A stretch of 64,000 nucleotides of DNA from an uncultured Candidatus Saccharibacteria bacterium (GTDB lineage: Bacteria > Patescibacteriota > Minisyncoccia > Phycocordibacterales > UBA1006), in the NCBI GenBank assembly GCA_964592365.1, contig CAZQDL010000001.1, positions 13,198 to 77,197 of the forward strand, written 5' to 3'. The notes under the pieces were generated by a model. That model saw only the letters and a program-made list of their open reading frames with translations. It was not told the DNA's origin and made no database searches. Each line of letters opens with the position of its first letter. Position 1 is the first letter of the stretch. Positions 46 through 41,097 of this stretch are shown here, one piece after another. The translations under genes and the position numbers were made by a program.

Positions 46-924
46 TCATGCACCTTTTCCAATCTTCCATTTACCACCTTCTTGAAAAGCTGGTATGGTT
101 TGTCTTTTTGCTTTATTTAGCAAATTTGAATAAGAAATTTTTCTATACTCTGCATATTCTTTAAGTGAAATAATATCTTCACCCTTAAGATAGCTTATTC
201 TTTTATGGTAACTATTCATAAGCGCAATACCAATGATATTTTCCATAGTCTCAGTTGATCCATCGTTATCATATTCACTGAATGCTTTATAATATTGAGT
301 ACGATCAACAAAGCGAATATTAATAGGAACATAGCCTTTTCTTAATAACAGATAATTATTCAAGACCCTTCCAATTCGTCCATTTCCATCAATAAAAGGA
401 TGGATATTTTCAAATGCTAAGTGGAACCTAGAAATTTTTCTTACAATATGCTCTGTAGTATTACTTAGGTATGCAGTGAAAACATCTTGCAACAAGTTTT
501 CAATGCGTTCAGGCGCAGGTGCAATATGATTTGCAACTTTCACATATTCTCCTTTCTCACGAAACCTCCCCGCTATGTCGTCTTGAATATTTGAAATTAG
601 CATGCGATGAAGAAGTAATATCATGCTGTTATCTAAATCATGATCCTTAGCTTTTTTATGAATATATTCAGAAACCCGAGCAAGATTTTTTGCTTCAAAA
701 AGCTCACGCTCACTTATATACCTATCTACATCAATTTCCATAAGAATTCTTTCTGTTTCTTCCAACGTCAAAGTACTGCTTTCAATAGCATTTGAGTTAT
801 ACACCTGCTCACTCACCTCCTTTTCATTTATCATATTAACGAGCGTTTCTTTCCCAGGAAGTAGTTGATAGTATTCATTTCGTAATTCTTCTATGCTTTT
901 ATAGAAATGCTGAATTTTAGACAT
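46..924 (-). CDS. Fic/Doc family protein (putative AMPylase)
   Basis: HPFIDGNGRIGR matches the Fic core motif HPFx(D/E)GNGR. N-terminal SNAIES resembles the inhibitory-helix motif (S/T)xxxE(G/N). Confidence 0.8.
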   Translation of the reverse strand: MSKIQHFYKSIEELRNEYYQLLPGKETLVNMINEKEVSEQVYNSNAIESSTLTLEETERILMEIDVDRYISERELFEAKNLARVSEYIHKKAKDHDLDNSMILLLHRMLISNIQDDIAGRFREKGEYVKVANHIAPAPERIENLLQDVFTAYLSNTTEHIVRKISRFHLAFENIHPFIDGNGRIGRVLNNYLLLRKGYVPINIRFVDRTQYYKAFSEYDNDGSTETMENIIGIALMNSYHKRISYLKGEDIISLKEYAEYRKISYSNLLNKAKRQTIPAFQEGGKWKIGKGA

Positions 925-3049: not shown

Positions 3050-6000
3050 CTATTTTTTAACAAAATTAAGCACTTTTGGCTCAAAAAGCTTTGGCATTTG
3101 CATATCTATATATATAGTTTCACCATCTGGATTAAGTTCTTCTGGAAGATATACCGTATGCTCACGCTGAAATGAAATACCTATTTCATATACATCATCA
3201 AAAACATATGGGCGTATATCAATTAGCTGTTCCCTATACGGATGAACACTAACTTCAATTACTCTATTTGCGAGATATAGCTGTACCGTTGATGAGCCTG
3301 TTCCTTCAAGAAGTAATTGCTTTCCCTTTAGAGATTCAGATGAGGTTAATGTCATTTGATACATTCCTTGTTCATCTCCTTTAGGCAAGGTTCCATCTAT
3401 TAATTCCATCTGTGAGATTGACCCTACCCCTTCAACACGTCCATCTTGAATATCATAATCAAGAAGTTCCCATGATGATGGAAGAAATACGTCAACAGAA
3501 TCTTCAAGAGGGATAATATCTATGTTTGTTGAACTTTCTGTTAATGGAAGAAACTGTTCATCATTTGGAAAAAACGGTTCACTAAAAGATGGAAGAGATA
3601 TTTCTTGCTGTCCAGGAATACCTCTATGTGTCTGGTATGACAAGATGAGCTTTTCAGAAGAAAGTGATTCGTTTGGAATACGAACCTCTTGAATACTTTC
3701 AGGCAAAAGATTTCCTAAAGAAATACCATTACTTATCTGAACATCATACAATGCATATTCTCTTATATTCCTAAGCTGCAAAAGAAGATCATCATCAGAA
3801 AGGATATAGCTTACATCTATATCATTAAACATATTTTCTACCACATGAGCTAAAGACTTCTGCTCGTTTCTGTTATTAAATATTCCCCTTGCATCATCTG
3901 GCTGATCAAGGACAAAGGGATTGTTGTAACCCTCAGGTACTGGCTGTGCCCAGTTATCATGTGATTGGAAGATAAAAGCTCCTGAAAATCCCCTATTGAT
4001 AATATTCATCCACTGTTCTTTGAGTCTAATGGCTCTAAGTACTGGATCAGTTTTTTCATAGAACGCTTCAAATCCACCTAACTCTGTTGCGATCACTGGT
4101 TTTTCAAAGCTTTGTAGAATATCAAGAGATTTTTCCCAGTATGTCTCTCCCGTATCAAGCATATTCACCCCTAAAACTGAAGATGGATAATTAATACTTG
4201 GATAGAAACTAGCATAGCTTGAAAGCTGTTCGTATTCAGCATCATTAATATCATCTAGCATCTGGAAAATAGTATTGATACGATCTACTGAATGAATTTC
4301 TATCTCGTTTCCTAAACTTATCGAAAGTATATGAGGGTTACTTCCATATTTCTCTTGTAGACGATCATATCTATTTAGCAATCCCAAAGATCCTCGTAAC
4401 CAGATATCAGTTGATTTCCAATTTGATCGTGCTGGTTGTATCATTGCAAACATCATATGTTCATCAAGTGCCTTCAGAAATTGCTTGTTAGGTGCATGAT
4501 ATATTCGTATTGCATTAGCTCCAAGAGAGGTAATAAGTTGCATACCTTCTTGATGTGAAAGTCCAACTGATCGTTGTGTATATGCACCAACAATACCCTT
4601 TACCAAAAAGGGTTCCCCATTTAGATAGATTGTTCCATTTCTTGTTTCAATGTGTCTGGTATTAAATTCTGTTGATACACGGCAAGAAGTTTCAGGAATT
4701 GATATGGATATAGCATACTCTTCAAACCCTAATGGAAATTTCTTTGTGATGGCTGTAGAACCATTAACCAAGGGATGTGTCTCTTCAATATCATTAATAT
4801 GAAGGATAATCATTTCCTGTTCTGTGTTTGCCGTAACTTCAATATCAACAACAATTTGGTCGCCCTCAATATTCTTTTGAATATCAAAATCAATAGCGTT
4901 ATGTGAAAAATAGCTAAGCCATGGATTTTTACAAGAATTAGGAGAAAATATATGACTGATATATCCATATACAACAATTCCTAATATCAAAAAAAGTATC
5001 CCAATTTTTCTATATGGAAATTGCTTTACTGTATTTCGGCTAATTGGTTTCCAATTAAATCTCTTTAAAAGAGCATCTCCAAAACCAAGAAGGAAGGTAT
5101 ACATATCTACAATTACCATAAAGGGGTAGCTTAAGATGATCACAAGCATTTGCTTTTTTGAAAACGATTGAAAGAAATAGTTTGACCTAATTGCAAACAA
5201 CAAAGGAAGAACAAAAGCTATGGCAACAATCACACCTAACCAATCTTGTAGGTATGGAAAACTGATAAGTGAATAATATATGTCACTGCCCTGAAGAAAC
5301 ATAACAGAAAGAAAACCAATAATTGTTAATGGGAAAGAAATAAAGGTTCCAAATATAGTTCCAATTGCAACCAAAGAAGCCTTCCGTTCCATTATCAAGG
5401 AAACTAGAAATACGATGAGGATACTTGATACCACAATATACATCTGTAATGATGAAGTTAATTGCAGAAAAACAAAGGTATTAATTGCGATAAGAGGAAC
5501 TACTGAAAGTACAGGAACAATGAATACCAAACTATGTAACAGCATTATCAATCTTTGCTTTGTATCAATGTTTTGAGAAAGGAAAATGTTTTTGAAGAAA
5601 TTAAAGGCAATCCTGTTGTGACCTGCTGACCATCTTCTTCTTCGTGCGATATAGTCAACCAATCGAGGAGATACACTTTCTGAAGATCCAAGGTGTGATA
5701 TATATCCAATACGGTGACCAGCAAGAATAAGTTGGTAACTTAGATAAGTATCTTCAGTAATGGAATTACTAAATCCATATTCTTTCAAGATATCAGTTTT
5801 GAAAAGTGCTGTTGTACCTGTAAAAAAAGAACTCCCGTGATAATAACGGATAAGATGGTTCATCATTTCATTTCCTACATGGTTTTGTAAACTGTCCAAT
5901 AGTTGGAAAAACCCTTTTGTAGATTTAGCTCTTCTTACCCCCTGTACAGCGACAACCATATGGGTATCTAAGTATGAAACAGAAGATGAAACTACAGCAG

Positions 6001-6421
6001 GATCAGCAATGTGATCAGCATCAATAAGGAAGGTGTAGTCTGTATGTATTTTGGGAATAATAGCATTTAACTTATCCTTTTTTGCTGAAAATCCTGTAGA
6101 CACTACATTTATTTGATGCCTAGTTTTGTTCTCTTGTATTAACTTAGTAACATATTGATACGAAGTATCAGATTCTGATTTTACAAGTATATAGATGAAT
6201 AACGTTCCAAGATATTTCTGTTTTAACAGTGACTCAATTACGGCTACGATTTCTTCACCTTCATTGTGGCATGGGATAAGGACTGAAATATCTTTATCTG
6301 AAGAATCTATCTCTTCACTTTCAGAAGAAGACATTTTTGCACTTAACAGAAGAGGAAAAAGAACATATCCTGTAACTCCAAACAGGATAACGATAACTAA
6401 AGCAATAATAACTGAAAGCAT
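3050..6421 (-). CDS. Family-2 processive glycosyltransferase (synthase-like) fused to a C-terminal clan GH-A glycoside hydrolase-like domain, with multiple TM segments
   Basis: The N-terminal part has a DAD motif and RRRRWSAGH (Q/RxxRW), which are GT2 processive synthase features. The central part has at least 6 TM helices. The C-terminal part has LGNEIE (acid/base) and IATELGG (nucleophile), which are motifs typical of clan GH-A (GH5/GH2-like). Confidence 0.6.
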   Translation of the reverse strand: MLSVIIALVIVILFGVTGYVLFPLLLSAKMSSSESEEIDSSDKDISVLIPCHNEGEEIVAVIESLLKQKYLGTLFIYILVKSESDTSYQYVTKLIQENKTRHQINVVSTGFSAKKDKLNAIIPKIHTDYTFLIDADHIADPAVVSSSVSYLDTHMVVAVQGVRRAKSTKGFFQLLDSLQNHVGNEMMNHLIRYYHGSSFFTGTTALFKTDILKEYGFSNSITEDTYLSYQLILAGHRIGYISHLGSSESVSPRLVDYIARRRRWSAGHNRIAFNFFKNIFLSQNIDTKQRLIMLLHSLVFIVPVLSVVPLIAINTFVFLQLTSSLQMYIVVSSILIVFLVSLIMERKASLVAIGTIFGTFISFPLTIIGFLSVMFLQGSDIYYSLISFPYLQDWLGVIVAIAFVLPLLFAIRSNYFFQSFSKKQMLVIILSYPFMVIVDMYTFLLGFGDALLKRFNWKPISRNTVKQFPYRKIGILFLILGIVVYGYISHIFSPNSCKNPWLSYFSHNAIDFDIQKNIEGDQIVVDIEVTANTEQEMIILHINDIEETHPLVNGSTAITKKFPLGFEEYAISISIPETSCRVSTEFNTRHIETRNGTIYLNGEPFLVKGIVGAYTQRSVGLSHQEGMQLITSLGANAIRIYHAPNKQFLKALDEHMMFAMIQPARSNWKSTDIWLRGSLGLLNRYDRLQEKYGSNPHILSISLGNEIEIHSVDRINTIFQMLDDINDAEYEQLSSYASFYPSINYPSSVLGVNMLDTGETYWEKSLDILQSFEKPVIATELGGFEAFYEKTDPVLRAIRLKEQWMNIINRGFSGAFIFQSHDNWAQPVPEGYNNPFVLDQPDDARGIFNNRNEQKSLAHVVENMFNDIDVSYILSDDDLLLQLRNIREYALYDVQISNGISLGNLLPESIQEVRIPNESLSSEKLILSYQTHRGIPGQQEISLPSFSEPFFPNDEQFLPLTESSTNIDIIPLEDSVDVFLPSSWELLDYDIQDGRVEGVGSISQMELIDGTLPKGDEQGMYQMTLTSSESLKGKQLLLEGTGSSTVQLYLANRVIEVSVHPYREQLIDIRPYVFDDVYEIGISFQREHTVYLPEELNPDGETIYIDMQMPKLFEPKVLNFVKK

Positions 6422-6482
6422 ACTCCTATAGTATAGAATATCACTACCCTGTCTAGAAATATAAAAACACCTTTCGGTGTTT

Positions 6483-8177
6483 TTATTGTGATACTCCCCA
6501 AATACATGTTGGACCTAATGATCGATAACAATAGCCACTTGGATCTCCAGGTCTACAACTATCAGATACATATGGCATAGGTTGGCCAGTGAAGTCCACG
6601 TCTTCTGGCGGTACAAGCACGGTAATCATTCCATATGAGTGAATAGCATAATCGTTTTCAACTCCAGGATATGGCTCCATTGCAAATACAGGAGTTGACC
6701 ATAGATCTACATCATTTTCATAAAATCCAACCTTACCTTGATTCCAGTAATATGTATTATTATTACATGTAGATTTTGTAGTCATACTAGAACAAAGTGT
6801 TCTTGCTAATGAGTACGCTGAGTTAGTTTGAGGATTAGGACCCAACTCACTATATTGCAAAGGATAACATCCTGCAGTTCCAATATCTTCAATTACTGGC
6901 TTTGGATCTTTTATCTCGTCAGGCTCAGGTGTACATGCTCTAGTTGCTGAAGGTTTCACTCCAGTACACAGTGAATCATCAACCACTGTTCCTGTCTGAT
7001 TTTGACATCTTACCGTTTGAGTTTGAACTCCATCTGAAGCACTTGTCCAACCACACTGTGCGTACGCAGTACATGATGTCTGTGTTGTCTTTGATGAACA
7101 ATATCCTGTTTCTATTGGTACCTGTTCCCACGAACATCCTGCTGTAGTTCCACACTGTGTTTGAGAAAGTGATGTACAAGAATTTTGAGTATTTATACTT
7201 GCTGAACCACTAGGGTTTCCACTTGTCTGAAGTGGTTGATTGCTTTGAATAGTATTTCCGGTCCAATTACAGCTTCCGTTTACTACACTGAATTCATCAT
7301 ATCTCCAAGAGTTTCCAGAGACATATACTTCGTAACATGAACCTGATGGTGAGTAATACAAACCATCAAGTTCAGCGATCAACAAATCTTGTAAACCGCC
7401 TCCAAGTACATTAGTGGTTTTGAATCGTTGCCCCTCAGTCCAATTAAACTCATCACCATCCCAATTTATATATGTAGAAGTAGTATATGTCCCAATACAA
7501 CTATTACCATAGTTTGTATACAGTGCATCTTTAGTTGGATCATTAATATCGCTACAAGTATCAGTAGCAAATCCACTACATGCTCCCCAATCACCTACCT
7601 GAACCCATTGATATGTATCTGTTGTTGGAGTAACAGGTGCTGAACAGTTTTGTCCATTTGCAGGGTCATATACCCCACAACGTAGAAATGAACCTGATTC
7701 ATTAACACATGTACAATATGTTGTTGGGTCATCATTGTATAGAACAAGTGATTGAATCTGGATATCACCATCAATTTGAAGCTTTGCAATATTTGGAACT
7801 GGACTAGCAAAGCCAATATTTACTGAATTGTTAAGTGGAGTTCTTTGTGTCTTGTTATCTTCATTAAGTGCATTAAATTCAGCATTTCCATACGTAAGTA
7901 CGCTATCAAAGAGTGTATCTCCTGCTGATCTAAATTTTATATCTTTAGTATTGAAAGCAATGGCTTCTTCACTATCTTTAAAGAAAGTAAAGATTTGAGG
8001 TCGATCTTTAGCCCCCACCTGGAATCGAGACAAACGCCCTCCACTTCCATCAGTTTTAATTAAATTACTTGATGTGTAATTCTGTGCTCCTGCTGATTGA
8101 GTAAGAATAAGTAGTGCTGCTAAAGCTACTACTGAAATAGCACCCGCAACAACCTTTTTAATGACTTTGTTATTCAT
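6483..8177 (-). CDS. Secreted Cys-rich, Ser/Thr-rich protein with a TSR-like module
   Basis: Signal peptide (MNNKVIKKVVAGAISVVALAALLILTQSAGA). The C-terminal region carries CGWTSASDGVQTQTVRCQNQTGTVVDDSLCTGVKPSATRAC, which is shared with two neighbouring proteins. Confidence 0.6.
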   Translation of the reverse strand: MNNKVIKKVVAGAISVVALAALLILTQSAGAQNYTSSNLIKTDGSGGRLSRFQVGAKDRPQIFTFFKDSEEAIAFNTKDIKFRSAGDTLFDSVLTYGNAEFNALNEDNKTQRTPLNNSVNIGFASPVPNIAKLQIDGDIQIQSLVLYNDDPTTYCTCVNESGSFLRCGVYDPANGQNCSAPVTPTTDTYQWVQVGDWGACSGFATDTCSDINDPTKDALYTNYGNSCIGTYTTSTYINWDGDEFNWTEGQRFKTTNVLGGGLQDLLIAELDGLYYSPSGSCYEVYVSGNSWRYDEFSVVNGSCNWTGNTIQSNQPLQTSGNPSGSASINTQNSCTSLSQTQCGTTAGCSWEQVPIETGYCSSKTTQTSCTAYAQCGWTSASDGVQTQTVRCQNQTGTVVDDSLCTGVKPSATRACTPEPDEIKDPKPVIEDIGTAGCYPLQYSELGPNPQTNSAYSLARTLCSSMTTKSTCNNNTYYWNQGKVGFYENDVDLWSTPVFAMEPYPGVENDYAIHSYGMITVLVPPEDVDFTGQPMPYVSDSCRPGDPSGYCYRSLGPTCIWGVSQ

Positions 8178-8327
8178 ATCTGCAATTATATCACAGCTTG
8201 ATAAAAAATAACCATATGTGGATATCTTTTTCAGACATATTGCCGTTTTCATTGTTTAAATGTATAATTTTGACAGAAACGCAGAAAGTCTGTGTAAATA
8301 ATCTTTTACAAAAAAAATCCAACACGC

Positions 8328-10208
8328 ATGAAAAACTTTATTTTCTCATTGATTCTGACGGTGTTAGGATCAATGTTTGGCTACTCGCAAGAGTTGCCTA
8401 AAACGACAGCGCAACTATCTGTTGCTCAATCTATTGATAGATTTGCATATATACATAGTAGCTATAGGAATAATCATTCACTTATGGCTGGGGTTATCAT
8501 CAATGATGATGACTTCCCATCACTAAGATTAGATAATTTTAGTATATTAGAATCTTTTCGTAACCCACTTGATACCCCTGATTTTCCGTACTTTCCAACA
8601 GAGACAAGTATTTCAAATACATTAGGGAGTATTATAGGTAACGTAAATATTTCAGAAAATCATGATAATCAAGTGCGAATTTCGATCGTTAACATTAATG
8701 ATGGGTCTGTTGTGAAACAATTCACCCTAAGAAACATGAAGATTGGAGCCATGGTACGTAATCATATGCTCGTAAATGACGATTATTTGTACATACTATT
8801 GTCAGGTAATCAAAATTCTTCAACCATTGAAGATGGATATACTGGCTTTCCATTTAGTATTTCAAAAGGAACTAGATTGAATCATGACACACCAATATTG
8901 CTTCAAGTGAGGATCTCTGATTTCAGAGTAAAAACTTACGCCTTCCCCGAAGGAACAATGTTTAAAAGAGGTAATTTAACTGCCGATGAAGATGGAAACA
9001 TCTATTTACAAGCAGTAGATTCTTTGATTTCTGAGACCTTCTATTTATTAGGTCTTAATACTGAACTTGAAGTACTATTCAAATCACCTGAAATTGCCAG
9101 AGTTAAATATGATGTAGATTTGTTTAAAACTCAAATGTTACATGCAAAAATACTCGGTAATGAATATCTTGTATATTGGAATGGTGTAGCTCCTGGGATA
9201 TATAACATATCAAGAGGAGAAAACATCATTAGTACTGATTTGAAAACAGGTCTTGACTGGTCAGAAGAAATCCAATTCCACGATGTGAATATTGAATCAA
9301 TACATCACATTCCTGGAACAGATAAATTCTTACTCGTAAGACAAGTAGGAGTACATGAACGAGTTCTTCCATGGATGCAAGTAGTAAATATCTATGGAGA
9401 AAGAACTCTATTCTTCAGAGAAAGAATTGAACGTACAAAAAATGGTGTCTCTTCATTCTCTCGCCCGTATATTATCGGTTCATATTTTGATGATCAAAAA
9501 AATCTTCACTATATGGCCATGTATAACGAGGGGGGAATAGCATCTCTTAATGGAACCACCATCGCAGATGGTACCCAAGCAGATGATACGGCTATTATTT
9601 TCAAAGGAACTCTTCAAGGAATAGATGTAAATTTCTCTTCAAAAGGAGGACTTGAGAATTTTATTCCACAAAGTGGTTCTGTAACGTACGATAGTTCTGA
9701 TGGAAATAATAATGTGGTCTATTCAGGAGTTTCTGATGTATCTAATATTATTGTAAATCGCCAAGTAGCTGAAGGCTATACGGCGGTTCCTGATAGCTAT
9801 GTTCCTAGTAACGGAAGTAACTTTGTTTTTAATGCTGATTTCAGTAATAAAAGAGTTCAAAGAACAGCAATTGCGAATATCGTAAATGGCAAAGGGCAAA
9901 CAACTAGAGATCTTGATATTATAATGATAGTAAGAGAATTTGCTGATGAAAATCTATCAACTGAAGTTTTCAATGAAAATGATTTTGCTGTTTATCCAAA
10001 TCCAGCAAGTGATGAGGTGTCAGTAAGGTTTGATAGTGATGTTGAGATTAACGTTAAGATATACAATTTAATGGGCCAACTAATTTATAGAAAAACTAAT
10101 ATTTTTTCTGGAGAATCAGTTGATGTTTCATCTTTCGCAAGAGGGATGTATATTGTACACTTTTCAAATAACGAGAAGAGTATAAGTAAAAAAATCGTTC
10201 TTCAATAG
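8328..10208 (+). CDS. Secreted protein with a T9SS/Por-type C-terminal sorting domain
   Basis: N-terminal signal peptide. The last ~80 aa (DFAVYPNPASDEVSVRFDSDVEINVKIYNLMGQLIYRKTNIFSGESVDVSSFARGMYIVHFSNNEKSISKKIVLQ) match the Por_Secre_tail/TIGR04183 pattern. Confidence 0.6.
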   Translation: MKNFIFSLILTVLGSMFGYSQELPKTTAQLSVAQSIDRFAYIHSSYRNNHSLMAGVIINDDDFPSLRLDNFSILESFRNPLDTPDFPYFPTETSISNTLGSIIGNVNISENHDNQVRISIVNINDGSVVKQFTLRNMKIGAMVRNHMLVNDDYLYILLSGNQNSSTIEDGYTGFPFSISKGTRLNHDTPILLQVRISDFRVKTYAFPEGTMFKRGNLTADEDGNIYLQAVDSLISETFYLLGLNTELEVLFKSPEIARVKYDVDLFKTQMLHAKILGNEYLVYWNGVAPGIYNISRGENIISTDLKTGLDWSEEIQFHDVNIESIHHIPGTDKFLLVRQVGVHERVLPWMQVVNIYGERTLFFRERIERTKNGVSSFSRPYIIGSYFDDQKNLHYMAMYNEGGIASLNGTTIADGTQADDTAIIFKGTLQGIDVNFSSKGGLENFIPQSGSVTYDSSDGNNNVVYSGVSDVSNIIVNRQVAEGYTAVPDSYVPSNGSNFVFNADFSNKRVQRTAIANIVNGKGQTTRDLDIIMIVREFADENLSTEVFNENDFAVYPNPASDEVSVRFDSDVEINVKIYNLMGQLIYRKTNIFSGESVDVSSFARGMYIVHFSNNEKSISKKIVLQ

Positions 10209-10252: not shown

Positions 10253-11602
10253 CTAACAAGATTGTGAAGTTGCTGGTTTAGTTGTTGTACACTGTCCATC
10301 AGGAACAACAGCTCCCAGATTATCCTTACAAGTTACGGTTCGAGTTTGTGTTCCTGTTGCTCCTTCATTCCAGGTACATGCTGCATTCAATGAAGTACAT
10401 GCAGTTGATGATGTCGGTCCTGCACACTGATTTACCGTTGTTGTATTAGTCGCTACCCATGAACAATCTCTATTCAATGAAGTACATGCAGTTGATGATG
10501 TCGGTCCTAAACAAGAAAGGAACGTTGGTGTGTATCGATTGTTACACGCAGAGTATTCAGGACAAACATAGTCATATCTAAACTGCTGTGCTTGTGTAGC
10601 TACAATCGCATCGGTTGTTGAACTCTGATCTCCACACCAAATAGCTGAACAGTTTGGCGTATTAACCGGAGATCTAACCCATCCTGAACCAGTCCAACGA
10701 GCTTTGTACCATTCTGAGTTATTTATTCCTCCTGTGTGCACTCTTACACTCCCTTGATTAGAAAGAATCTGATTGAATTGTGTTGAAGATAATTGAGAAT
10801 GCCCCTCTGAGGTATATGTACTATATGAATAATAGTATTTGTACTGAGCTTCTGTTTGGTTAGCCATGTAATAGTCTTGAGTTGTTGAACAACCAGAACA
10901 AGTTCCTCCTGTTGCCCCCATTGGATTTAAGCTATTAACACTACCTACCTGTACCCTGCTACCGTTATACACTCTATGTTCAACCCAATTGAATGCTGTC
11001 GTGTTATCAATCCAAACTTTTTGTGAAACAGGTGATACCGTATACACCCCTTCACATGAACCCCCCGCAGTTGTAGTTGTCCATGAACCTTCACATGAAC
11101 CTAGAGAAGCTGAAGTACAACTTCCCCATGCTGATGTTTCCCATGAATATGTTGCTGGTCCATTTCCACAAAGAGTAATCAAACCATCTTCATTTGAACA
11201 AACATATCTTGGGTTAGTTGCAGAAAGGTCAGCAAGAGCTGTAGACATAATGTTTCCATTTACATAAATACCTGAAGTTGTATATGTACCCATCCATGTT
11301 GCACCAAAACGAGCAGCATCAAGAACTTGTGTAACACCATTTACTTCTAAATCTTTGAAAGCTGCTGCTTTTTCTGAATAGATTTTTAAATCATCAAAAA
11401 CTGATGCAAATGATGCTGATGGATCAGTAGCTGTCTGATCAGTAAAGATTACTCGAGCATACTTATTCTGAAGATCAGTTCCTGAGATAAACTTAGCAAC
11501 AGTTGGCGTTTGAGCTACGGCTATATATCCAAGTGCAAATGTAGCAATAGCAAGAACTAGGACTCCAGCTTTTCCTCTAAATAAATGTAAAAACTTTTTC
11601 AT
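10253..11602 (-). CDS. Secreted Cys-rich, Ser/Thr-rich protein, paralogue of the TSR-like family
   Basis: Signal peptide (MKKFLHLFRGKAGVLVLAIATFALGYIAVAQT). The C-terminus ends in GTQTRTVTCKDNLGAVVPDGQCTTTKPATSQSC. It contains an internal 29-aa tandem duplication. Confidence 0.6.
   Translation of the reverse strand: MKKFLHLFRGKAGVLVLAIATFALGYIAVAQTPTVAKFISGTDLQNKYARVIFTDQTATDPSASFASVFDDLKIYSEKAAAFKDLEVNGVTQVLDAARFGATWMGTYTTSGIYVNGNIMSTALADLSATNPRYVCSNEDGLITLCGNGPATYSWETSAWGSCTSASLGSCEGSWTTTTAGGSCEGVYTVSPVSQKVWIDNTTAFNWVEHRVYNGSRVQVGSVNSLNPMGATGGTCSGCSTTQDYYMANQTEAQYKYYYSYSTYTSEGHSQLSSTQFNQILSNQGSVRVHTGGINNSEWYKARWTGSGWVRSPVNTPNCSAIWCGDQSSTTDAIVATQAQQFRYDYVCPEYSACNNRYTPTFLSCLGPTSSTACTSLNRDCSWVATNTTTVNQCAGPTSSTACTSLNAACTWNEGATGTQTRTVTCKDNLGAVVPDGQCTTTKPATSQSC
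10385..10508. repeat. Two perfect 37-nt direct repeats (10385-10421 and 10472-10508), in-frame and inside the CDS
   Basis: attcaatgaagtacatgcagttgatgatgtcggtcct occurs twice, 87 nt apart. It encodes the duplicated peptide GPTSSTACTSLN..C. Confidence 0.9.
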
Positions 11603-11738
11603 ATATGAGAATATTGTACCATGTGTAAATAAATAATGACAAATACATTCTACACTGACATGCATTAAGCACAGCTTTTTATAGATTTATTAAAGAAAAA
11701 ATTTTGAAATGTTTTTCGTTTCCACAGAAAGCTAACTT

Positions 11739-11793: not shown

Positions 11794-13098
11794 TTACGAA
11801 CATGCCGGAGCAATTGGTACAAATCTGCTATAGAAACTAGGTCCTGAAATCCATGACTCTGGACTTCCAACGGTAGAATATGACGGAGTATTATTTGTAG
11901 GTGGATTATATGGATCTCCAGAAGCATTTGTGTAGATCACACTTCCTGGGCTTCCACCTCCATTTACCTGATATTTATAGTATGGATTAACTCCAAGAGG
12001 ATTCCCATTTGAAACACACTCGTAACGATACCATGTATTATCCGAACCACTAACATAATACCCATAACAAGCATCTTGCAAATTAGTTGTTGGATTAATT
12101 GAAACCTTTGATTGATTAAAGTACCCATAACTTGCTCCCTTCCAGTTGAATGGAGAGCCATCTACCCAAATAGGGCTACAGCTACTTGTATTTGAAACTG
12201 CTGCTGTTCCGGTAATTTGAATACTATTAGAAGTAACGGTTGCTCCAGTTGATTTACAAATTGCGGTAATACTTGCATTCCAAGTAATAGGTCCAAAATT
12301 ACCATGAGACACTGGTGAAACATCAGTTTGTGCTGAAGTTGAAGTGGTTGGTCCTGATACTCTTAGGCTTACATTTTCATAAGCTGATTCATCAAAATCT
12401 ACGTTCACTATTCCATTTGCACCAGAAGTAATTGTTGGGTCTTGACTAACAGAAACATCTCCTGCTGTTAATACTGGAGCCTGACAAGAAGAAACACAAC
12501 TTTGAGATACTGCGGGCTTTGTTGCAGTACACTGCCCGTCAGAAACGACAGTACCTATATTACTTCGACACTCAACAGTTCGAGTTTGGGTTCCACTTGT
12601 ACAACTCCCCCAATTTGAAGTATACCAAGAGTAGCTCGGCTGTCCTTCACAAGGAATAAGAGTATGCCGAAATGAGCATAGATTCTTGTTGGTACCCGTG
12701 TTTTTTAGAGAAGTTGCCATGATTGAACCATCAACATTTAATCGTTGTGAGAGAGGCAGTAACGAAATATCTTCAAAAGCGTTATTTGGATTTGCAACCT
12801 TAAACCCTGAATTCTTATCACCTATCCACGTCATCCCTGAAATAAGCAGATTATTTAACACCATGAACATACTTCCTGGTTTTGGAAATTGACTCAATGC
12901 AGATCCACTTCCAGAAACATTGATTCCATATCCTGGATTATCCAAATCACCGATACTTAATCGTGAAAGTGGTTGGGGCATATTTCCTGGATGTAATAAA
13001 GGTGTTATTGGATCTCCTGGTGCTGCTTCAACCGAGGTAACAGTCATTCCTAGTACGAGTATTAATACTGTATATACAATTGTTTTTAATGATTTCAT
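11794..13098 (-). CDS. Secreted Cys-rich protein with a TSR-like module
   Basis: Signal peptide MKSLKTIVYTVLILVLGMTVTSVEA. The module is SWYTSNWGSCTSGTQTRTVECRSNIGTVVSDGQCTATKPAVSQSC. Confidence 0.6.
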   Translation of the reverse strand: MKSLKTIVYTVLILVLGMTVTSVEAAPGDPITPLLHPGNMPQPLSRLSIGDLDNPGYGINVSGSGSALSQFPKPGSMFMVLNNLLISGMTWIGDKNSGFKVANPNNAFEDISLLPLSQRLNVDGSIMATSLKNTGTNKNLCSFRHTLIPCEGQPSYSWYTSNWGSCTSGTQTRTVECRSNIGTVVSDGQCTATKPAVSQSCVSSCQAPVLTAGDVSVSQDPTITSGANGIVNVDFDESAYENVSLRVSGPTTSTSAQTDVSPVSHGNFGPITWNASITAICKSTGATVTSNSIQITGTAAVSNTSSCSPIWVDGSPFNWKGASYGYFNQSKVSINPTTNLQDACYGYYVSGSDNTWYRYECVSNGNPLGVNPYYKYQVNGGGSPGSVIYTNASGDPYNPPTNNTPSYSTVGSPESWISGPSFYSRFVPIAPACS

Positions 13099-13112
13099 AT
13101 ATCTATTATGCA

Positions 13113-14021
13113 TTAGCTCTCGATAAATTGGAAGTTATTAACATCTGCATTATCCGGACAATTTGGTCCAGGACAAGTATCATCTACTCCACATCGTACT
13201 TGTGCAGATCCAACAATAATATCATTAGTGTTATCCCCTTCACATTGAATTCTAAAGAATGACCCTGAATTACCACTTGTAATTAATCCTGAATTTTCTC
13301 CTGAAGAACTTGTCCCTCGAGATCCTGGACTATTCCAAGGAGCATTTCCTGCTGTTTGACAGTTTGATACATTCTTAGAATTCCAAGAAACAGTAGCAGT
13401 TTGTCCACATGCACCAATATTTGCTGACGATCTTCCATTTACAAGAACATCGATGGTTTCAGCACATGGCCCATCAGCATCTGAAGGAGTGTTTGCTCGC
13501 GAAACGTTAGAAAAATCTAACAATCCCATTCCAACCTGAACATCACCTTGTGATTGACCACTTACATACTGTGTATCCTTTGCTTCTCCTGCTGAAAATG
13601 AACCAGTATTTGTTGAGTACACTACAGTTTGAAGACCTTCAATTGTTCCTGTATATCCACCCCATGCGAAATTTCCATCGGGAGAAAGTGCATCTGCTTC
13701 ATCATCGGTACCGTAATCAAAATCAATCCATCCAAGTGTCTCATTCCATCCCCTTCCGGTGAAATATCCGCCTCCATTCTCGGTAGTTACATAACTTACT
13801 GAATATCCATGATCAGGTTCCCATGGATCAGTAAGAGAATTAACATAAATGTTTTGACCATCCTCAGGTAAGTTTGTTGCGATAATATACCCAGTGAGAT
13901 TTCCTGTGTTCTGATAGGTACTACAATCAACCTGAGCATCAGATTGAAAAGTTGGTACACTTACCCCTACGATAAGTGAAAGAGTTAAAACTACTGCAAT
14001 TTTTTTCATCATGTTTTTCAT
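13113..14021 (-). CDS. Secreted protein, Gly/Ser/Thr-rich and Cys-containing
   Basis: Signal peptide MKNMMKKIAVVLTLSLIVGVSVPTFQSDAQ. No recognisable catalytic motif. Confidence 0.5.
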   Translation of the reverse strand: MKNMMKKIAVVLTLSLIVGVSVPTFQSDAQVDCSTYQNTGNLTGYIIATNLPEDGQNIYVNSLTDPWEPDHGYSVSYVTTENGGGYFTGRGWNETLGWIDFDYGTDDEADALSPDGNFAWGGYTGTIEGLQTVVYSTNTGSFSAGEAKDTQYVSGQSQGDVQVGMGLLDFSNVSRANTPSDADGPCAETIDVLVNGRSSANIGACGQTATVSWNSKNVSNCQTAGNAPWNSPGSRGTSSSGENSGLITSGNSGSFFRIQCEGDNTNDIIVGSAQVRCGVDDTCPGPNCPDNADVNNFQFIES

Positions 14022-36957: not shown

Positions 36958-37872
36958 TTACCCTTTCTTATGAAACTTCTTATGAACATCTCTCAGTTGA
37001 CGGTCAGTTATGTGTGTATATATCTGTGTTGTGGCAATGTTACTGTGCCCCAGCATAATTTGAACACTTCGTATGTCTGCACCGTTTCTCAGTAAATCAG
37101 TTGCGAAGCTATGTCTAATAGTGTGTGGCGTAACTCTTTTTGAGATCCCAGCCTTAATGGCAATCTGTTTCACAATTCGTTCCACAGAACGTGGAGTTAA
37201 TCTAATTGACTCTTGGTTCTCAAGACGTTTCACGAGACCTGGGCCTTCTTGAATAAATAGAGCCTCATCAACATCTGCTCTTGAAGCCATGTATTTCTTC
37301 AGTGAAACACGTGCCTCTTCAGACAAAAAGACAATTCTAATTTTTTCTCCTTTTCCTCTAATGCTGAATTCATCCTTGGATAAATCAAGATCCCTATTTA
37401 AAGAACAGAGTTCAGAAATTCGAAGACCAGTTGAAAAGAGAAGATTAATGATTGCATGATCACGTAGATGACTACTTGATACTTCAATCATACGTAATAG
37501 TTCATTTCCATCTAAATGATCAATATGCCTCTCTCCTACTTTTGCCAGTTCAATTTTGTCAGGACTATACGAAGAAATATTTTGCTGCATTAAATATTTT
37601 AGAAATACTCGAAGAGCAATGAGGTGATAATTTTGGGTTCTTTTCTTTAGCGTAGTTGCTGCCTGACCTTTTTGTTTTATTCCTGGTTGACGGTTCAAGT
37701 GTAATCTAAACTCTCGAATACATTCTGAGTTAATTTCACTTGTTGTTGAAATCTTACTAAAGTTAATAAATCGTTTGATATACCTTTTATAATTTACGAC
37801 AGTCTTAAGACTTCTTCCTTTTTCAATTTCGATGTACTCAAGAAAGCGAGTAAGTGCATCATTAATGTTCAT
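36958..37872 (-). CDS. Tyrosine site-specific recombinase, XerC/XerD-like
   Basis: The C-terminal catalytic region HTIRHSFATDLLRNGADIRSVQIMLGHSNIATTQIYTHI provides the R..HxxR..Y tetrad. Total length is 304 aa. Confidence 0.8.
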   Translation of the reverse strand: MNINDALTRFLEYIEIEKGRSLKTVVNYKRYIKRFINFSKISTTSEINSECIREFRLHLNRQPGIKQKGQAATTLKKRTQNYHLIALRVFLKYLMQQNISSYSPDKIELAKVGERHIDHLDGNELLRMIEVSSSHLRDHAIINLLFSTGLRISELCSLNRDLDLSKDEFSIRGKGEKIRIVFLSEEARVSLKKYMASRADVDEALFIQEGPGLVKRLENQESIRLTPRSVERIVKQIAIKAGISKRVTPHTIRHSFATDLLRNGADIRSVQIMLGHSNIATTQIYTHITDRQLRDVHKKFHKKG

Positions 37873-38545: not shown

Positions 38546-41077
38546 GTGTATACTATATATATGAAGAAATATTTTATATCCCTTGTGATCATTTCAGCCT
38601 TGGGCTTTTCTGTACAACCAAAAGAGGCTCAGGCTTTTGTAGTTTTTGAAAGTGGAACAAATCTATTTACAAACATTGCAACCACAGCTGAATCTATTTG
38701 GAATACCGCAGCTCAGGAAATTCTTCTGCCAGCGGTTGAAAGAATGATTGAACGAGAGCTTGAAAAAGTTGTTAACAAATCATTAAATCTTGGAGGGGAA
38801 TTACTGGTTACTGATTTGGATCAAGCACTACGTGGAACAGGTTATGCTGCTTTAGCAAATAGATTTAATAGTGCTAATAATTATTACTACCGAACTCTTT
38901 CAGAAAGTGGTATTTGTGCAAGAGACCAGGCTGGTTGTTCACTTAATCCAACAGAGCAGGCTGAACAAAATTATCGCCTCATGGAAGATGGATCGATAAA
39001 CTCAAAAAGAAGTGTTGCTTCAACTATTTCAAAAGTAGCTACAAAATCACTTTTCAGTAATGCTTTAGATAGGGTAATTAAAAGTGATCAAAAATTAATT
39101 AAGAATGAAGATTTTAATCAATCAAATTTTTGGGGAAATTATTTAGAAATTATCAACCCAGAAAGAACAGAGGTTGGAGTATCAGGAGTAGTAACGGGTA
39201 GTTTAAGTGCAGAAGTTACGACCTCTCGAGGGAATTTCTTACGTGACCTTCAAACTCCACAACGATTTCTAGATCAAAAGCGATGTATTGAGTATGAAGT
39301 AGATGACATTACGGGAGAACAGGTTTGTGTGAGGAATGTTACTCTTACTCCAGGAGCTCAAATTGCTGAGAAGGTAAACGAATCAATATTGAAAGATGAA
39401 CGTGTAGCAGGTAGTGCTGAGGGACTTGTTGGTATGCTTATCTCATCAGCAATTGGAAAGGTTACTGATGATTTGATTAGTAAAGGTATTGCTGGAATTA
39501 GTGGAAGACTAAGCGGAGGAAGTAACAATCAAGGGAATATTAATAATTCTGTATTTAACAGTTCAGGTTTAGGAAGATCTGAATTTGATGTCCTTGGAAA
39601 TTCTGTTGATAGTTTTCAAGATAATTCAACTAGGATTTATGATGATTTCCAAGTTGATGGATCTACAGGTGGGGGAGCTTCTATCGGTGGACCAGAAGAT
39701 GGTAACAGTGTTCAGATCACTATTGATTTAAGCGAGGTCATTGAAGAAAACATCCGTTTTGCTGAAGAAGAGCAATCATACTTTGATGAAATTCAATCAA
39801 TTAGAAATAGGAGTAAAGAAACAATCATAGCACTTGATCAGTGTCTGCCTTCTCCTCAATATGGCTGGGAGGAACGTTTCTCTGATATTTTTCAAACATC
39901 AGGAACCAGTGACTATAGTCTTTTGAATTCAATCGCTTTAAGTGAAACAAGACAAATGGTTAATGATCCATGGGTAAATATTCCAGGAGCTTCAGATATT
40001 AGACAATCAATTGATGGAGTTATCTCTGAGACAAAACAAGATCAAGCTCAGAACGCACAAAGAATCTCTGCTGTACGTGAAACTCTTTCAACTCTTCGGT
40101 TTATTAAAGATCAAGTAGTTTCAGATGCAGCTACTCTTGCTGCTTCAAATAGTAGCTTTCAAAATTTAGTGATGTTTGATGACCAATGGTCAAAACTAGG
40201 CGTGCCTGGACAAACAAATGCTTTTAATTCTGCAATAAGTAATAACTACTATTCACTTAAAACAGGTGAAACAGCTTCTTCTATCATCAATGAAAGAAAT
40301 AGCTTTGCTAGAGATATTGTTAAAACTAGATCATGGGACATCTGGAGAGAAAATACAGAGAAAACTAAAAAGAATGATTTGCGATATAGTTTCTTCGTAA
40401 TCCAAAACAAATTATCTAATGAAGAATTCGTAACTCGAGCACGTGTTTTGAAAAACCAAATTGGAAGTAAGTCTGAATTTTCAGAAAGCCTACTACAAGA
40501 TTGTTTTGTTTTCAGGGCATACAGCCTTGGAGCTAGCCAGGCAAATATTCAGCAGACGATAAATAGTAGTAACAACGTAGATGAATTGATTGCCAACTTT
40601 GATAAACTACTAGCACCATATCAAAATATTTCTCACCGTGGTTTCAAACAAGAGTTAACTTTCATTAATACAGATACTGCACGAGATGATGATGAGATTG
40701 GCGAATTCATCAATGATGAATATCAAAAGCAATTGCGTGGTGTTAGTTCGTTGTTCAAAACAACAACAATCACCGGAGCATTGCCAACTAGTATCCTAGG
40801 ATTTGCTAACGAATCAGATAAAGAAGAATACTTTGAAGAAAACTATCCTATTGATGATTTCAAAGATCCGATATCTTTCAACCAAATGAGTGTAAAAGAG
40901 ATGCTTCGTGCAGATAGATTTATCTCAACATATGGAAGAGCACGTGGAATTCGTGGTGTGTTATTCTGTAGAGTGAAAGGAGTATGGGATGCAGGAGCTG
41001 ATAACAGATCAATTTGTTTGCTTGATTGGTATACAACAAGTAATCTTGATTACAACGTTGCTTTTGCCGGAATATAA
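38546..41077 (+). CDS. Large secreted protein (843 aa), first gene of the T4SS-like locus
   Basis: Signal peptide MKKYFISLVIISALGFSVQPKEAQA. No catalytic motif was recognised. Confidence 0.5.
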   Translation: MYTIYMKKYFISLVIISALGFSVQPKEAQAFVVFESGTNLFTNIATTAESIWNTAAQEILLPAVERMIERELEKVVNKSLNLGGELLVTDLDQALRGTGYAALANRFNSANNYYYRTLSESGICARDQAGCSLNPTEQAEQNYRLMEDGSINSKRSVASTISKVATKSLFSNALDRVIKSDQKLIKNEDFNQSNFWGNYLEIINPERTEVGVSGVVTGSLSAEVTTSRGNFLRDLQTPQRFLDQKRCIEYEVDDITGEQVCVRNVTLTPGAQIAEKVNESILKDERVAGSAEGLVGMLISSAIGKVTDDLISKGIAGISGRLSGGSNNQGNINNSVFNSSGLGRSEFDVLGNSVDSFQDNSTRIYDDFQVDGSTGGGASIGGPEDGNSVQITIDLSEVIEENIRFAEEEQSYFDEIQSIRNRSKETIIALDQCLPSPQYGWEERFSDIFQTSGTSDYSLLNSIALSETRQMVNDPWVNIPGASDIRQSIDGVISETKQDQAQNAQRISAVRETLSTLRFIKDQVVSDAATLAASNSSFQNLVMFDDQWSKLGVPGQTNAFNSAISNNYYSLKTGETASSIINERNSFARDIVKTRSWDIWRENTEKTKKNDLRYSFFVIQNKLSNEEFVTRARVLKNQIGSKSEFSESLLQDCFVFRAYSLGASQANIQQTINSSNNVDELIANFDKLLAPYQNISHRGFKQELTFINTDTARDDDEIGEFINDEYQKQLRGVSSLFKTTTITGALPTSILGFANESDKEEYFEENYPIDDFKDPISFNQMSVKEMLRADRFISTYGRARGIRGVLFCRVKGVWDAGADNRSICLLDWYTTSNLDYNVAFAGI

Positions 41078-41097
41078 AAAACCCTTATGGGTTTTTT
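41074..41097 (+). terminator. Intrinsic terminator
   Basis: aaaaaaccc-ttat-gggtttttt. Confidence 0.6.

Follow-up and report, generated by a model that had tools for sequence, protein, structure and literature searches.

One gene in the window (the whole stretch of 64,000 nucleotides that we analyzed) encodes a covalent fusion of a membrane-embedded GT2 synthase and a clan GH-A-like glycoside hydrolase ectodomain. We consider it rather likely that this single polypeptide is a self-contained synthase-dependent machine, which polymerizes, exports and then cleaves or releases its own beta-linked glycan. The open reading frame (3050..6421, 1123 aa plus stop) lies on the minus strand, as do all features described below. 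It is intact and starts with ATG, and three public contigs carry the identical protein, called by independent gene callers. The first-pass annotation had proposed a single 1123-aa polypeptide at 3050-6421, and we recovered the same coordinates, here assigned to the minus strand. The fusion it had proposed also stood, given the profile matches, the confident models and an invariant catalytic triplet. Residues are numbered with Met1 as 1, alignment A1 and the full-length structure model being numbered one lower, and conservation was measured over the 21 full-length homologs of alignment A1 (28-61% identity).

The N-terminal part of the protein is a predicted cytoplasmic GT2 domain of the GT-A fold (aa 44-268; 5618..6292), delimited by Pfam and by the BcsA profile. 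It matched PF13641 above the gathering threshold (E 1.2e-24, 88 bits, GA 27), as well as PF13632 (58 bits) and PF00535 (57 bits). The family profile matched BcsA structures with E 4.4e-18 over the GT domain, the interface helix IF2 and the first transmembrane (TM) helix. Three motifs were invariant and aligned with BcsA: the DxD motif D134-A-D136 within IDADH (6014..6022; DADH in BcsA), the catalytic base region T222-E223-D224 (5750..5758; TED in BcsA) and RRRRW at aa 260-264 (5630..5644; QRGRW in BcsA), the family's version of QxxRW. The latter stands at the start of an interface helix (model helix 253-280) and deviates from QxxRW by carrying R261 instead of Q in every member. In addition, the FFTGT motif aligned to BcsA FFCGS. 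The N-terminal GT2 domain with DxD and R/QxxRW motifs that the first-pass annotation had noticed is thus backed by Pfam matches above threshold and by invariant, BcsA-aligned motifs.

Assignment to a named synthase was less straightforward. The PgaC model matched 20 of the 21 members and the CelA model 17 of 21; for each, the best E was about 1e-18 and the scores stayed far short of the cut-off. Indeed, the BcsA/CelA equivalog reached 46 bits for a cut-off of 699, PilZ having no Pfam match, and the PgaC_IcaA equivalog reached 67.5 bits for a cut-off of 422, with no conserved partner gene. By sequence, PNAG synthases and cellulose synthases are equally distant from the GT2 domain. From its fold and motifs, we infer that it is of the membrane-embedded, putatively processive synthase type (BcsA/PgaC/NodC/HAS).

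Six TM helices and two interface helices were modelled, with pLDDT values mostly of 83-91. TM1 (aa 3-27; 6341..6415), seen by hydropathy and as model helix 2-26, has its N terminus outside and is free of charged residues throughout the family. Behind the GT domain, the model and the K/R counts placed IF2, TM helices a to d, an interface-like helix e and TM helix f (aa 254-489; 4955..5662), which together would make up a putative translocation channel; the corresponding model helices span residues 253-280, 286-318, 322-343, 347-376, 392-416, 421-450 and 469-488. The first-pass annotation had multiple TM helices follow the GT2 domain, in good agreement with the hydropathy, the model helices and the K/R topology. 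The cytoplasmic loop before the last TM helix (aa 452-469; 5015..5068) is rich in positively charged residues, with on average 6.0 K+R across the family versus 0.7 in the loop between helices c and d. This loop harbors a conserved W457..I..R462 motif, in which W and R are nearly invariant or invariant, and by analogy to FxVTxK we tentatively consider it a possible equivalent of the gating loop.

The extracytoplasmic region, which had been estimated at ~600 aa, comprises about 630 aa (490-1123) and is supported by the K/R counts and by an invariant cysteine pair. The presumed disulfide partners are C497 (4931..4933), a cysteine in 21/21 members, and the invariant C580 (4682..4684). They are the only two ectodomain cysteines in 16/21 members, and the cysteine count is even in every member. 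Because of the charge distribution and this single invariant pair, we place the ectodomain outside the cell, and since the host is a monoderm-type CPR (Parcubacteria) bacterium, it would be extracellular rather than periplasmic. The host belongs to the ultra-small Parcubacteria and not to Bacteroidota. In public databases, these 630 aa carry no annotation, and homologs are labelled only "glycosyltransferase" (NCT00043.1, MDP7033560.1).

Structure prediction gave confident models (pLDDT 82 for the full-length protein and 80 for the barrel), with the catalytic residues on the right strands. In the model, the ectodomain forms a GH2-like stack of a beta-sandwich, a clan GH-A barrel and two further beta-sandwiches. 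Beta-sandwich domain 1 (aa 509-601; 4619..4897; model strands 508-600) precedes the barrel, as does the Ig-like domain of GH2 enzymes. It is followed by the (beta/alpha)8 barrel, the clan GH-A-like catalytic domain (aa 607-852; 3866..4603), and by the Ig-like beta-sandwich domain 2 (aa 868-941; 3599..3820; model strands 867-940), which has counterparts after the barrel in GH2 and GH158. The jelly-roll-like beta-sandwich domain 3 (aa 957-1122; 3056..3553; model strands 956-1121) is a possible candidate carbohydrate-binding module; it has a weak Pfam Glyco_hydro_2_N match (E 0.059) and is partly deleted in homologs P0012-14, P0017 and P0022.

The barrel harbors the two motifs on which the hydrolase reading had been based, LGNEIE (703-708) and ATELGG (778-783). 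The candidate Asn and general acid/base Glu, N705-E706 (4304..4309), lie at the end of beta4 (strand 698-705), and the candidate nucleophile E780 (4082..4084) lies on beta7 (strand 776-784). Since these three residues are invariant in 21/21 homologs and occupy the canonical positions in the barrel model, the motifs are not chance matches. Besides N705, E706 and E780, about 30 further barrel residues are strictly invariant. R639 (beta2), Y761 (after beta6) and W824 (after beta8), putative GH-A signature positions, are invariant or near-invariant; the model is poor in the conserved loop behind beta8 (residues 820-843 of the model). According to the model, the ectodomain has an intact candidate retaining pair, with E706 as acid/base assisted by N705 and E780 as nucleophile.

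Foldseek searches with the barrel (E 8e-13, TM score 0.7) returned hydrolases of families GH2, GH157, GH5 and GH158 as top fold matches, and the whole model aligned with LacZ/GUS over ~760-850 columns (E 2e-19). In the PDB, the barrel profile matched BuGH158 (6pal, E 8e-6), GH2 (E 1.4e-5), GH72 (E 3e-3) and GH157 (E 9e-3), sequence identity of the ectodomain to any solved GH being 9-21%. Using Pfam, NCBIfam and the PDB as proxies for CAZy/dbCAN, we found no GH family model of Pfam or NCBIfam that reached its own threshold on the ectodomain. For GH2, PF02836 scored 18.8 bits (GA 21) over barrel residues 8-77 only and in 2/19 members, PF00703 had no match and PF02837 had one only at the C terminus (E 0.059). 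The GH158 profile alignment was confined to positions 47-164 of 300 and hence not full-length. GH5 (PF00150) appeared in 1/19 members with E 0.13, and GH17 (PF00332) and GH72 (PF03198) had no match in the family, GH72 being seen only via the PDB profile (E 3e-3). The first-pass annotation had held that its reading would fall if the C-terminal region hit no GH family and the motif matches were coincidental: there was indeed no Pfam or NCBIfam GH family at threshold, but the motif matches are not coincidental. Judged by Pfam, NCBIfam and the PDB, the barrel thus appears to lie outside the described families and represents a candidate new GH family.

An exhaustive search of 1.84 billion (1.84e9) representatives yielded 65 members of the barrel family at E <= 1e-30. 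They are essentially confined to proteins 1100-1250 aa long, in which the barrel lies at about aa 580-660, and the shorter matches that we inspected were N-truncated fragments. In this search, the barrel family turned up essentially only in fusion with GT2, and no free secreted form was seen. The more remote barrels (E 5e-39 to 7e-11) likewise sat in GT2 fusions. The uncharacterized fusion proteins P0026, P0028 and P0080-P0095 also have an ectodomain of the retaining beta-glycanase type behind their last TM helix. In the paralogous synthase P0026, the GT2 and TM region is homologous to ours (31% identity over aa 31-463), but P0026 and P0028 carry a lichenase-like GH16 beta-jelly-roll (E 2e-25 to 3wvj). 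P0080-P0095, in turn, are shorter GT2-TM-GH-A fusions, whose barrels are more GH2/GH72-like and which lack the long C-terminal beta-sandwich region.

We propose the following mechanism. The inverting GT-A GT2 domain, with its D, DxD, TED and RRRRW motifs, would polymerize a beta-linked glycan from a UDP-sugar, and the post-GT helices would act as a channel that threads the chain, as in BcsA. The C-terminal ~630 aa, placed outside the cytoplasmic membrane as a GH2-like stack with the retaining pair in its barrel, would remain tethered and cut the emerging product of the synthase via a glycosyl-enzyme intermediate. Resolution by water would lead to release or length control, as achieved in trans by BcsZ-type hydrolases, and resolution by a sugar acceptor to transglycosylation, as by the GH17 domain of NdvB. 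In our view, the core role is to cleave or release the nascent chain, and the intermediate is about as likely to end in hydrolysis as in transfer. A beta-glucan-type homopolymer is the most likely candidate product, although the GT2 domain stands as close to PNAG synthases as to cellulose synthases. One point counts against nascent-chain cleavage: GH2 folds mostly act as exo-enzymes from the non-reducing end, and in BcsA-type synthases the nascent chain would not present this end outside the cell.

The ectodomain could instead be primarily a transglycosylase, moving the nascent beta-glycan to another chain or to a cell wall acceptor and so allowing branching, cyclization or anchoring, as modelled by the GH17 domain of NdvB and by fungal Gas (GH72) and Crh (GH16). 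This is possible, if on the doubtful side. The intact retaining GH-A machinery is a prerequisite for it, NdvB, the one characterized covalent GT2/GH-A fusion, is proposed to cyclize, the barrel profile matches GH72 glucanosyltransferases and the distant fusion P0095 matches Pfam GH72 (E 8e-10); furthermore, mere destruction of the product would seem wasteful in a CPR genome of the ~1 Mb class. However, the sequence does not tell transfer from hydrolysis, hydrolases lead the list of fold matches and we identified no acceptor-subsite signature. An ectodomain without catalytic activity might bind carbohydrate and guide or scaffold the polymer as it emerges, similarly to BcsB, or serve as an adhesin. 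Two or three beta-sandwich domains do flank the barrel, and some synthase-fused GH-like domains are regarded as inactive, among them the GH6-like domain of the cellulose synthase of tunicates. Nevertheless, the strict invariance of N705, E706, E780 and about 30 other barrel residues is the pattern of an active enzyme and makes this reading highly improbable.

Two further alternatives would uncouple the halves or change the nature of the first. If the GT2 product were a separate matter, the ectodomain might digest exogenous beta-glycans of a host, a prey or the environment for nutrition or invasion. An attack on foreign surfaces is plausible for the CPR episymbionts (Parcubacteria, Saccharibacteria, Gracilibacteria) and the predatory Bacteriovoracaceae, Bdellovibrionales and Myxococcota in which the family is found, although the taxonomic labels of MAGs are unreliable. 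The absence of the barrel family among free secreted enzymes in our search speaks against it, and so does the recurrence of GT2-GH ectodomain fusions with different GH folds, which suggests that synthesis and cleavage are mechanistically linked; we consider the idea improbable. We give the least credence to a GT2 half of the single-addition or lipid-directed kind (HpnI, glucosylceramide synthase or glycolipid type), with the helices as anchors only. It could draw on weak HpnI matches (E 1e-11), a precomputed PF13506/GT21 match and the scores of every named synthase model far below cut-off, but the best family-wide matches among named models are PgaC, CelA and NodC and among solved structures BcsA, the TED finger-helix motif, xRW on the interface helix and FFTGT are present, and the five to six helices behind the GT domain resemble the arrangement of channel-forming synthases.

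The reading of a synthase that processes its own product has a close precedent in NdvB, the pseudomonad "Orphan" cyclic beta-1,3-glucan synthase, which has a GH17-TM-GT2 architecture (PMC10237404). Both combine in one polypeptide a BcsA-like membrane GT2 with an extracytoplasmic (beta/alpha)8 retaining domain of clan GH-A, proposed to process the product of its own synthase, and both stand alone without Bcs-type partners. However, in NdvB PF00332 is N-terminal and PF13641 C-terminal, whereas here the order is GT2, TM helices and then a non-GH17 GH-like domain, with three added beta-sandwich domains in a GH2-like arrangement. NdvB hosts are Proteobacteria, and ours are CPR and other uncultured lineages. 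A synthase-glycanase fusion of the NdvB-like kind is thus known, and what is new here is a hydrolase-like domain that appears to lie outside the described families.

In the BcsA+BcsZ and PgaC+PgaB systems, too, a glycanase outside the membrane works on the nascent exopolysaccharide, and the BcsA motifs and post-GT helices align with ours. However, BcsZ (GH8, (alpha/alpha)6) and PgaB (CE4 plus GH153) are separate hydrolases of another fold, and the present protein lacks the PilZ domain, BcsB, BcsC and operon partners. GH2 enzymes (LacZ, beta-glucuronidases, beta-galacturonidases) share the order beta-sandwich, barrel, beta-sandwiches and the NE acid/base with a beta7 Glu; identity is only 13-21%, the N-terminal GH2 sugar-binding domain is missing here, and GH2 enzymes are soluble proteins, mostly with exo activity, rather than membrane-tethered to a synthase. 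In the tunicate cellulose synthase CesA, a eukaryotic processive GT2 carries a C-terminal GH6-like domain, whose fold is unrelated to clan GH-A and in which key catalytic residues are believed to be missing; here, the catalytic residues are invariant. The best sequence-profile match was BuGH158, in which N136/E137 are essential and a C-terminal Ig-like domain is present (PMC7157763). Our GNE aligns with its N136-E137, and an Ig-like domain likewise follows the barrel. However, identity to GH158, GH157 and GH72 is 14-18%, the GH158 alignment covers part of the barrel and the GH157 match is weak (E 9e-3). Moreover, the GH158/GH157 endo-beta-1,3-glucanases and GH72 beta-1,3-glucanosyltransferases are free, secreted or GPI-anchored, and not synthase-fused.

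Synthase-dependent exopolysaccharide systems normally need a synthase, a co-polymerase, a hydrolase and a porin. Here, polymerization, export and processing are proposed to reside in one gene of a genome-reduced CPR bacterium, without conserved partners, and this condensation would offer a minimal, tractable model for the coupling of glycan synthesis to extracellular cleavage or transfer. The fused synthase also provides a substrate hint for the candidate GH family, namely, whatever it makes. The recurrence of this design with ectodomains of GH16 and of other GH-A types points to an overlooked, modular class of synthase-glycanase fusions, and the present one may inform on the little-known CPR cell envelope. 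More speculatively, the ectodomain might found a synthase-only GH-A family of transglycosylases that graft nascent beta-glucan onto the envelope at the channel exit, building a surface glycan layer in Parcubacteria and other episymbiotic or predatory lineages for protection or for attachment to host or prey. We hold this to be unlikely; if true, a single bacterial gene would parallel fungal wall building by a synthase plus Gas/Crh.

Finally, we looked at the genomic neighborhood. No conserved neighbor gene was found across 34 loci, and the synthase gene would need no dedicated partners. Its upstream neighbors include Cys-rich secreted ORFs and a Por_Secre_tail protein. The adjacency to a secreted adhesin-like cluster, pointed out in the first-pass annotation, is true as a description but is not conserved across the family: it is kept only in the close lineage, along with nusA, tpiA and pgk, and apart from this lineage synteny nothing supports a link to these "adhesin" genes. 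MAG taxon labels require caution here, a "Crocinitomicaceae" NusA being 76% identical to the NusA of this CPR bacterium. Immediately behind the stop codon of the upstream gene, we read in the sequence a hairpin (aaacacc-gaaa-ggtgttt) plus a T-run (6455..6482). A consensus scan did not list it, but it is a probable terminator between the upstream gene and the synthase gene. The latter is probably cotranscribed with tpiA-pgk.

The synthase gene occupies 3050..6421 on the minus strand, where the ORF listing gives an ATG start and 1123 aa. The minus-strand frame is open throughout, the plus-strand translation is riddled with stops, and an identical 1123-aa protein is predicted on three independent public contigs. 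Both the ORF and the motifs cited in the first-pass annotation were thus recovered, the translation containing IDADH at aa 133, TED at aa 222, RRRRW at aa 260, LGNEIE at aa 703 and ATELGG at aa 778 (Met1 = 1; alignment A1 of the full-length homologs and the full-length model lack Met1, and their residue numbers are one lower).

The annotation of the N-terminal part as a GT2 synthase domain proved well founded. Three GT2 Pfam models exceeded their gathering thresholds (PF13641, 88 bits), and the full-length family profile (21 homologs) matched BcsA structures with an E value of 4.4e-18, the match extending from the GT domain through the interface helix to the first TM helix after it. In a pairwise HMMER alignment, DxD, FFTGT (FFCGS in BcsA), TED and RW fell at the BcsA motif positions, and all four are invariant within the family; in the QxxRW motif, arginine replaces glutamine in all members. 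As to sugar specificity, family-wide NCBIfam matches, a tblastn search against plasmids and a PDB profile search were all uninformative: PgaC matched 20 and CelA 17 of the 21 members, with a best E value of ~1e-18 for both; the plasmid search returned pgaC and bcsA genes, both at 22-27% identity; and the profile containing the GT2 domain had BcsA as its best PDB match. Because the named equivalogs scored far below their cut-offs (PgaC_IcaA, 67.5 bits against 422; CelA, 46 bits against 699) and PgaC and CelA tied, the domain represents a distinct GT2 synthase subfamily, whose sugar cannot be read from sequence.

An AlphaFold2 model of the protein, computed from the 21-sequence alignment (mean pLDDT, 82), contains the multiple TM helices that had been proposed to follow the GT2 domain. 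In model numbering, TM1 spans residues 2-26, the GT domain 44-250, an interface helix with RRRRW 253-280, and the later helices 286-318, 322-343, 347-376, 392-416, 421-450 and 469-488. The family averages of lysine plus arginine residues are 3.5 in the TM1-GT loop, 6.0 in the interface helix, 0.7 in the 378-392 loop and 6.0 in the 452-469 loop. Since positive loops lie one after the other on both sides of helix 421-450, which bears the invariant D439 and D449, this helix is best read as an interface helix resembling IF3, its proposed counterpart in BcsA. On this reading, the last TM helix is best taken to run from inside to outside. By analogy, the conserved W..I.R of the basic 452-469 loop may correspond to the BcsA gating loop. 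Of the 21 members, 16 have exactly two ectodomain cysteines and the others have four or six; C497 and C580 are invariant. Invariant, even-numbered cysteines are a typical signature of an extracytoplasmic disulfide. Together with the loop charges and the topology, this places the C-terminal ~630 residues outside the cell membrane, as the first-pass annotation had it.

Its description of this region as a GH-A hydrolase-like domain held for the fold, the profile matches and the catalytic residues but not at the level of a GH family model. Neither the full protein nor the isolated barrel nor any of 19 barrel homologs scored above threshold with a Pfam or NCBIfam GH model; the best sub-threshold signal was GH2_C (18.8 bits against 21, in 2 of the 19 homologs), and single-sequence phmmer against the PDB reached GH2 at E values of 0.04-0.8. 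Assignment to a GH family by sequence alone thus stopped at sub-threshold GH2, and it took profiles of the family together with fold searches to resolve the domain. Searched against the PDB, a barrel-only profile (A2, aa 585-881) matched BuGH158 (6pal; E, 8e-6), GH2 enzymes (1.4e-5), GH158(Pro) (1.2e-4), the GH72 enzyme Gas2 (3e-3), GH157 (9e-3) and a GH5 mannanase (0.08). The GNE of the barrel family aligned to the GNE of BuGH158, in which N136, E137 and the nucleophile E220 are essential (PMC7157763). With Foldseek, the full-length model matched LacZ and beta-glucuronidases best (E, 2e-19; 760-850 columns), so that the entire stack of beta-sandwich, barrel and beta-sandwich is predicted to be GH2-like as a whole. 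In the model, a beta-sandwich (aa 509-601) precedes the barrel, and an Ig-like sandwich (aa 868-941) and a larger C-terminal jelly-roll (aa 957-1122), partly deleted in some homologs, follow it.

The NE and TELG motifs occupy the canonical acid/base and nucleophile positions claimed for them. In the barrel model, beta4 (698-705) ends at N705 with E706 next, beta7 (776-784) includes E780, and all three residues are invariant in the family. Further invariant barrel residues are R639, Y641, Q662, Y736, N753-M-L-D756, Y761, W762 and S820-H-D-N823, while at least 90% of the members share H642 and W824. The loop after beta8 (aa ~819-845) is likewise conserved. From three independent lines, and despite the lack of a GH family at threshold, we conclude that the barrel belongs to clan GH-A; judged from the model and the conserved residues, it looks catalytically competent.

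A word-indexed search retrieved 28 relatives, of which 21 were full length. An exhaustive hmmsearch of the barrel profile against 1.84 billion representatives returned 65 proteins at E <= 1e-30, 77 at E <= 1e-10 and 251 at E <= 1e-3. Nearly all strong matches were 1100-1250 aa long, with the barrel near aa ~580-660. The short strong matches inspected as possible stand-alone barrels were N-truncated fragments whose start falls within the GT2, TM or ectodomain part, and no free-standing barrel-family protein was seen among the strong matches. In the next tier of barrels (E, 5e-39 to 7e-11; 867-973 aa), all eight proteins tested carried an N-terminal GT2 domain. The GT2 and TM region is also shared by two further relatives, P0026 (31% identity over aa 31-463) and P0028 (27% identity, with 41% of the synthase covered); the C-terminal domain of both is GH16 (Pfam E, 6e-33 and 1e-27, respectively), that of P0026 being nearest to Bacillus-type 1,3-1,4-beta-glucanases. 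Judging by sequence, the last TM helix of a GT2 synthase followed by a retaining beta-glycanase-type domain appears to be a recurring design, and the GH16 and varied GH-A fusions suggest a broader modular synthase-glycanase class, the GH16 variants also hinting at an exchange of domains. P0026 and P0028 (GT2-TM-GH16), as well as P0080-P0095 (GT2-TM-GH-A, 867-973 aa), are uncharacterized one-protein fusions of this kind. An example from the next tier is MEO5603374.1, from a Cyclobacteriaceae MAG, whose barrel reaches Pfam GH2_C and GH72.

The protein combines a GT2 homolog whose motifs are intact with a bundle of helices and, outside the membrane, a GH-A barrel that carries a presumed disulfide and has its catalytic pair invariant. 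The barrel and the synthase are associated exclusively, and the synthase has no conserved partner genes. Inverting GT2 enzymes use alpha-linked NDP-sugars as donors, and the GT2 domain would hence make a beta-linked polymer. The helices would export this polymer, and the tethered retaining enzyme would act on the emerging chain. Resolution of the glycosyl-enzyme intermediate by water would lead to release or length control, whereas resolution by a sugar acceptor would lead to branching, cyclization or anchoring; we consider hydrolysis and transfer about equally probable. That the ectodomain might be non-catalytic is unlikely given the invariance of its candidate catalytic residues. Likewise, the exclusive fusion of the barrel to the synthase makes it unlikely that the ectodomain forages on unrelated glycans. 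With regard to the product of the proposed synthesis and processing, the A2 matches lean to beta-1,3-glucan enzymes (GH158, GH157 and GH72) and the paralogs bear a lichenase-like GH16 domain, which weakly hints at a beta-glucan.

The nearest described system, and the only one found in a literature search for bacterial GT2-GH-A or GT2-GH16 fusions of this type, is NdvB. This pseudomonad "Orphan" protein consists of a periplasmic GH17 domain (clan GH-A), a TM region and then GT2, and is proposed to make and cyclize beta-1,3-glucan (PMC10237404). The principle is common to both proteins; however, the order is reversed in our fusion, its GH is not GH17, and it adds GH2-like accessory domains. It does not belong with NdvB, and its ectodomain lies by sequence outside GH2, GH5, GH72 and GH158, yet at the clan level within GH-A. 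A literature search found no description of the family, whose members are named only "glycosyltransferase" in databases, and we consider the ectodomain a candidate new GH-A family. By analogy with NdvB and the logic of BcsZ/PgaB, the synthase-glycanase principle would not be conceptually surprising. What the fusion offers is a clean, minimal and unannotated CPR system in which synthase-glycanase coupling becomes directly testable.

The host is a CPR bacterium. Its NusA is 72-80% identical to proteins of Patescibacteria, Paceibacteria and Minisyncoccia, and NCT00043.1, a "glycosyltransferase [Candidatus Parcubacteria bacterium]", is a copy of the synthase with at least 90% identity. A Bacteroidota origin, hinted at by the neighboring Por_Secre_tail gene, was ruled out by the NusA relatives and this Parcubacteria/Paceibacteria protein. 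A scan of one genome per species (185,579 species) gave only 30 loci, every one in a MAG. The carriers are labeled Bacteriovoracaceae/Bdellovibrionales (~10), uncultured Gammaproteobacteria (~7), Myxococcota (3), Saccharibacteria (2), Elusimicrobia (2), and Gracilibacteria, Planctomycetota and others (1 each). These labels need caution, one NusA labeled "Crocinitomicaceae" being 76% identical to that of this CPR bacterium. The labels of loci L007-L036 are mostly predatory (Bacteriovoracaceae, Bdellovibrionales and Myxococcota) or episymbiotic CPR (Parcubacteria, Saccharibacteria and Gracilibacteria). A tie of the fusion to such a lifestyle is possible, although all carriers are MAGs and at least one label looks wrong. 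In P0005/P0240, apparently one contig (length 23,842 bp for both), the synthase is 35% and NusA 74% identical. The synthase thus apparently diverges much faster than housekeeping genes in Paceibacteria-like genomes, a pattern that would fit diversifying pressure on a protein exposed at the surface.

An all-versus-all ORF comparison of 34 loci found no conserved neighbor gene or sugar-nucleotide partner. The contexts of relatives P0007, P0012 and P0019 differ, and distant members sit among unrelated housekeeping genes. Downstream of the synthase, after a 15-bp gap, lie tpiA and pgk; upstream lies a gene for a Cys-rich secreted protein, with a hairpin and T-run after its stop codon. The arrangement, including nusA and the Por_Secre_tail protein, is retained in the two closest relatives (61% and 42% identity), and a related genome encodes, at the corresponding position, a homolog (32% identity) of the protein whose gene lies directly before the synthase. 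These surroundings reflect lineage synteny and not a functional cluster. A promoter scan performed no better than shuffles. The rest of the window held no sugar-nucleotide genes, its content being housekeeping, origin-region and peptidoglycan genes (dnaA-dnaN, yidC, ruvABC, a class A PBP, and M23/LysM and PG-binding proteins).

Directly downstream of pgk lies a Fic/DOC family gene (46-924, minus strand; E, 7e-21), which adjoins RNase H in related contigs. Four secreted proteins without a family form a run, all on the minus strand: those at 6483-8252 (many cysteines in its alignment), 10253-11665 and 11794-13113 gave weak thrombospondin type 1-like matches (E, 4e-3 to 5e-5), and the one at 13113-14021 gave a single weak, alpha-1,3-glucanase D1-like match (E, 0.0097). 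The 626-aa Por_Secre_tail protein (8328-10208, plus strand; Pfam E, 1.3e-16; TIGR04183 E, 8e-16), with counterparts at L038:4552-6411 and L005:5922-7868, has a clear type IX secretion C-terminal sorting domain within an otherwise Parcubacteria/CPR genome. Neither an outer membrane nor a type IX secretion system is expected in CPR bacteria, and the domain may have a different use here or have been acquired horizontally.

Just downstream of a tyrosine recombinase gene (36958-37872), the plus-strand cluster within 38546-51945 encodes large proteins of 843, 714 and 218 aa without a Pfam family; after these come proteins with a VanY domain (718 aa) and a PG_binding_1 domain (551 aa), and then a P-loop ATPase resembling TraG/VirB4 (615 aa). 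The cluster may encode a cell-surface apparatus of CPR bacteria or a type IV-like one for secretion/competence. The chromosomal origin region (52000-58000), in which the minus strand carries R3H/Jag-like and YidC genes and the plus strand carries dnaA (53896-55251) and dnaN (55478-56578), has the lowest GC content in the window (29-31%), and the cumulative GC-skew minimum lies to its left, at ~32-34 kb.
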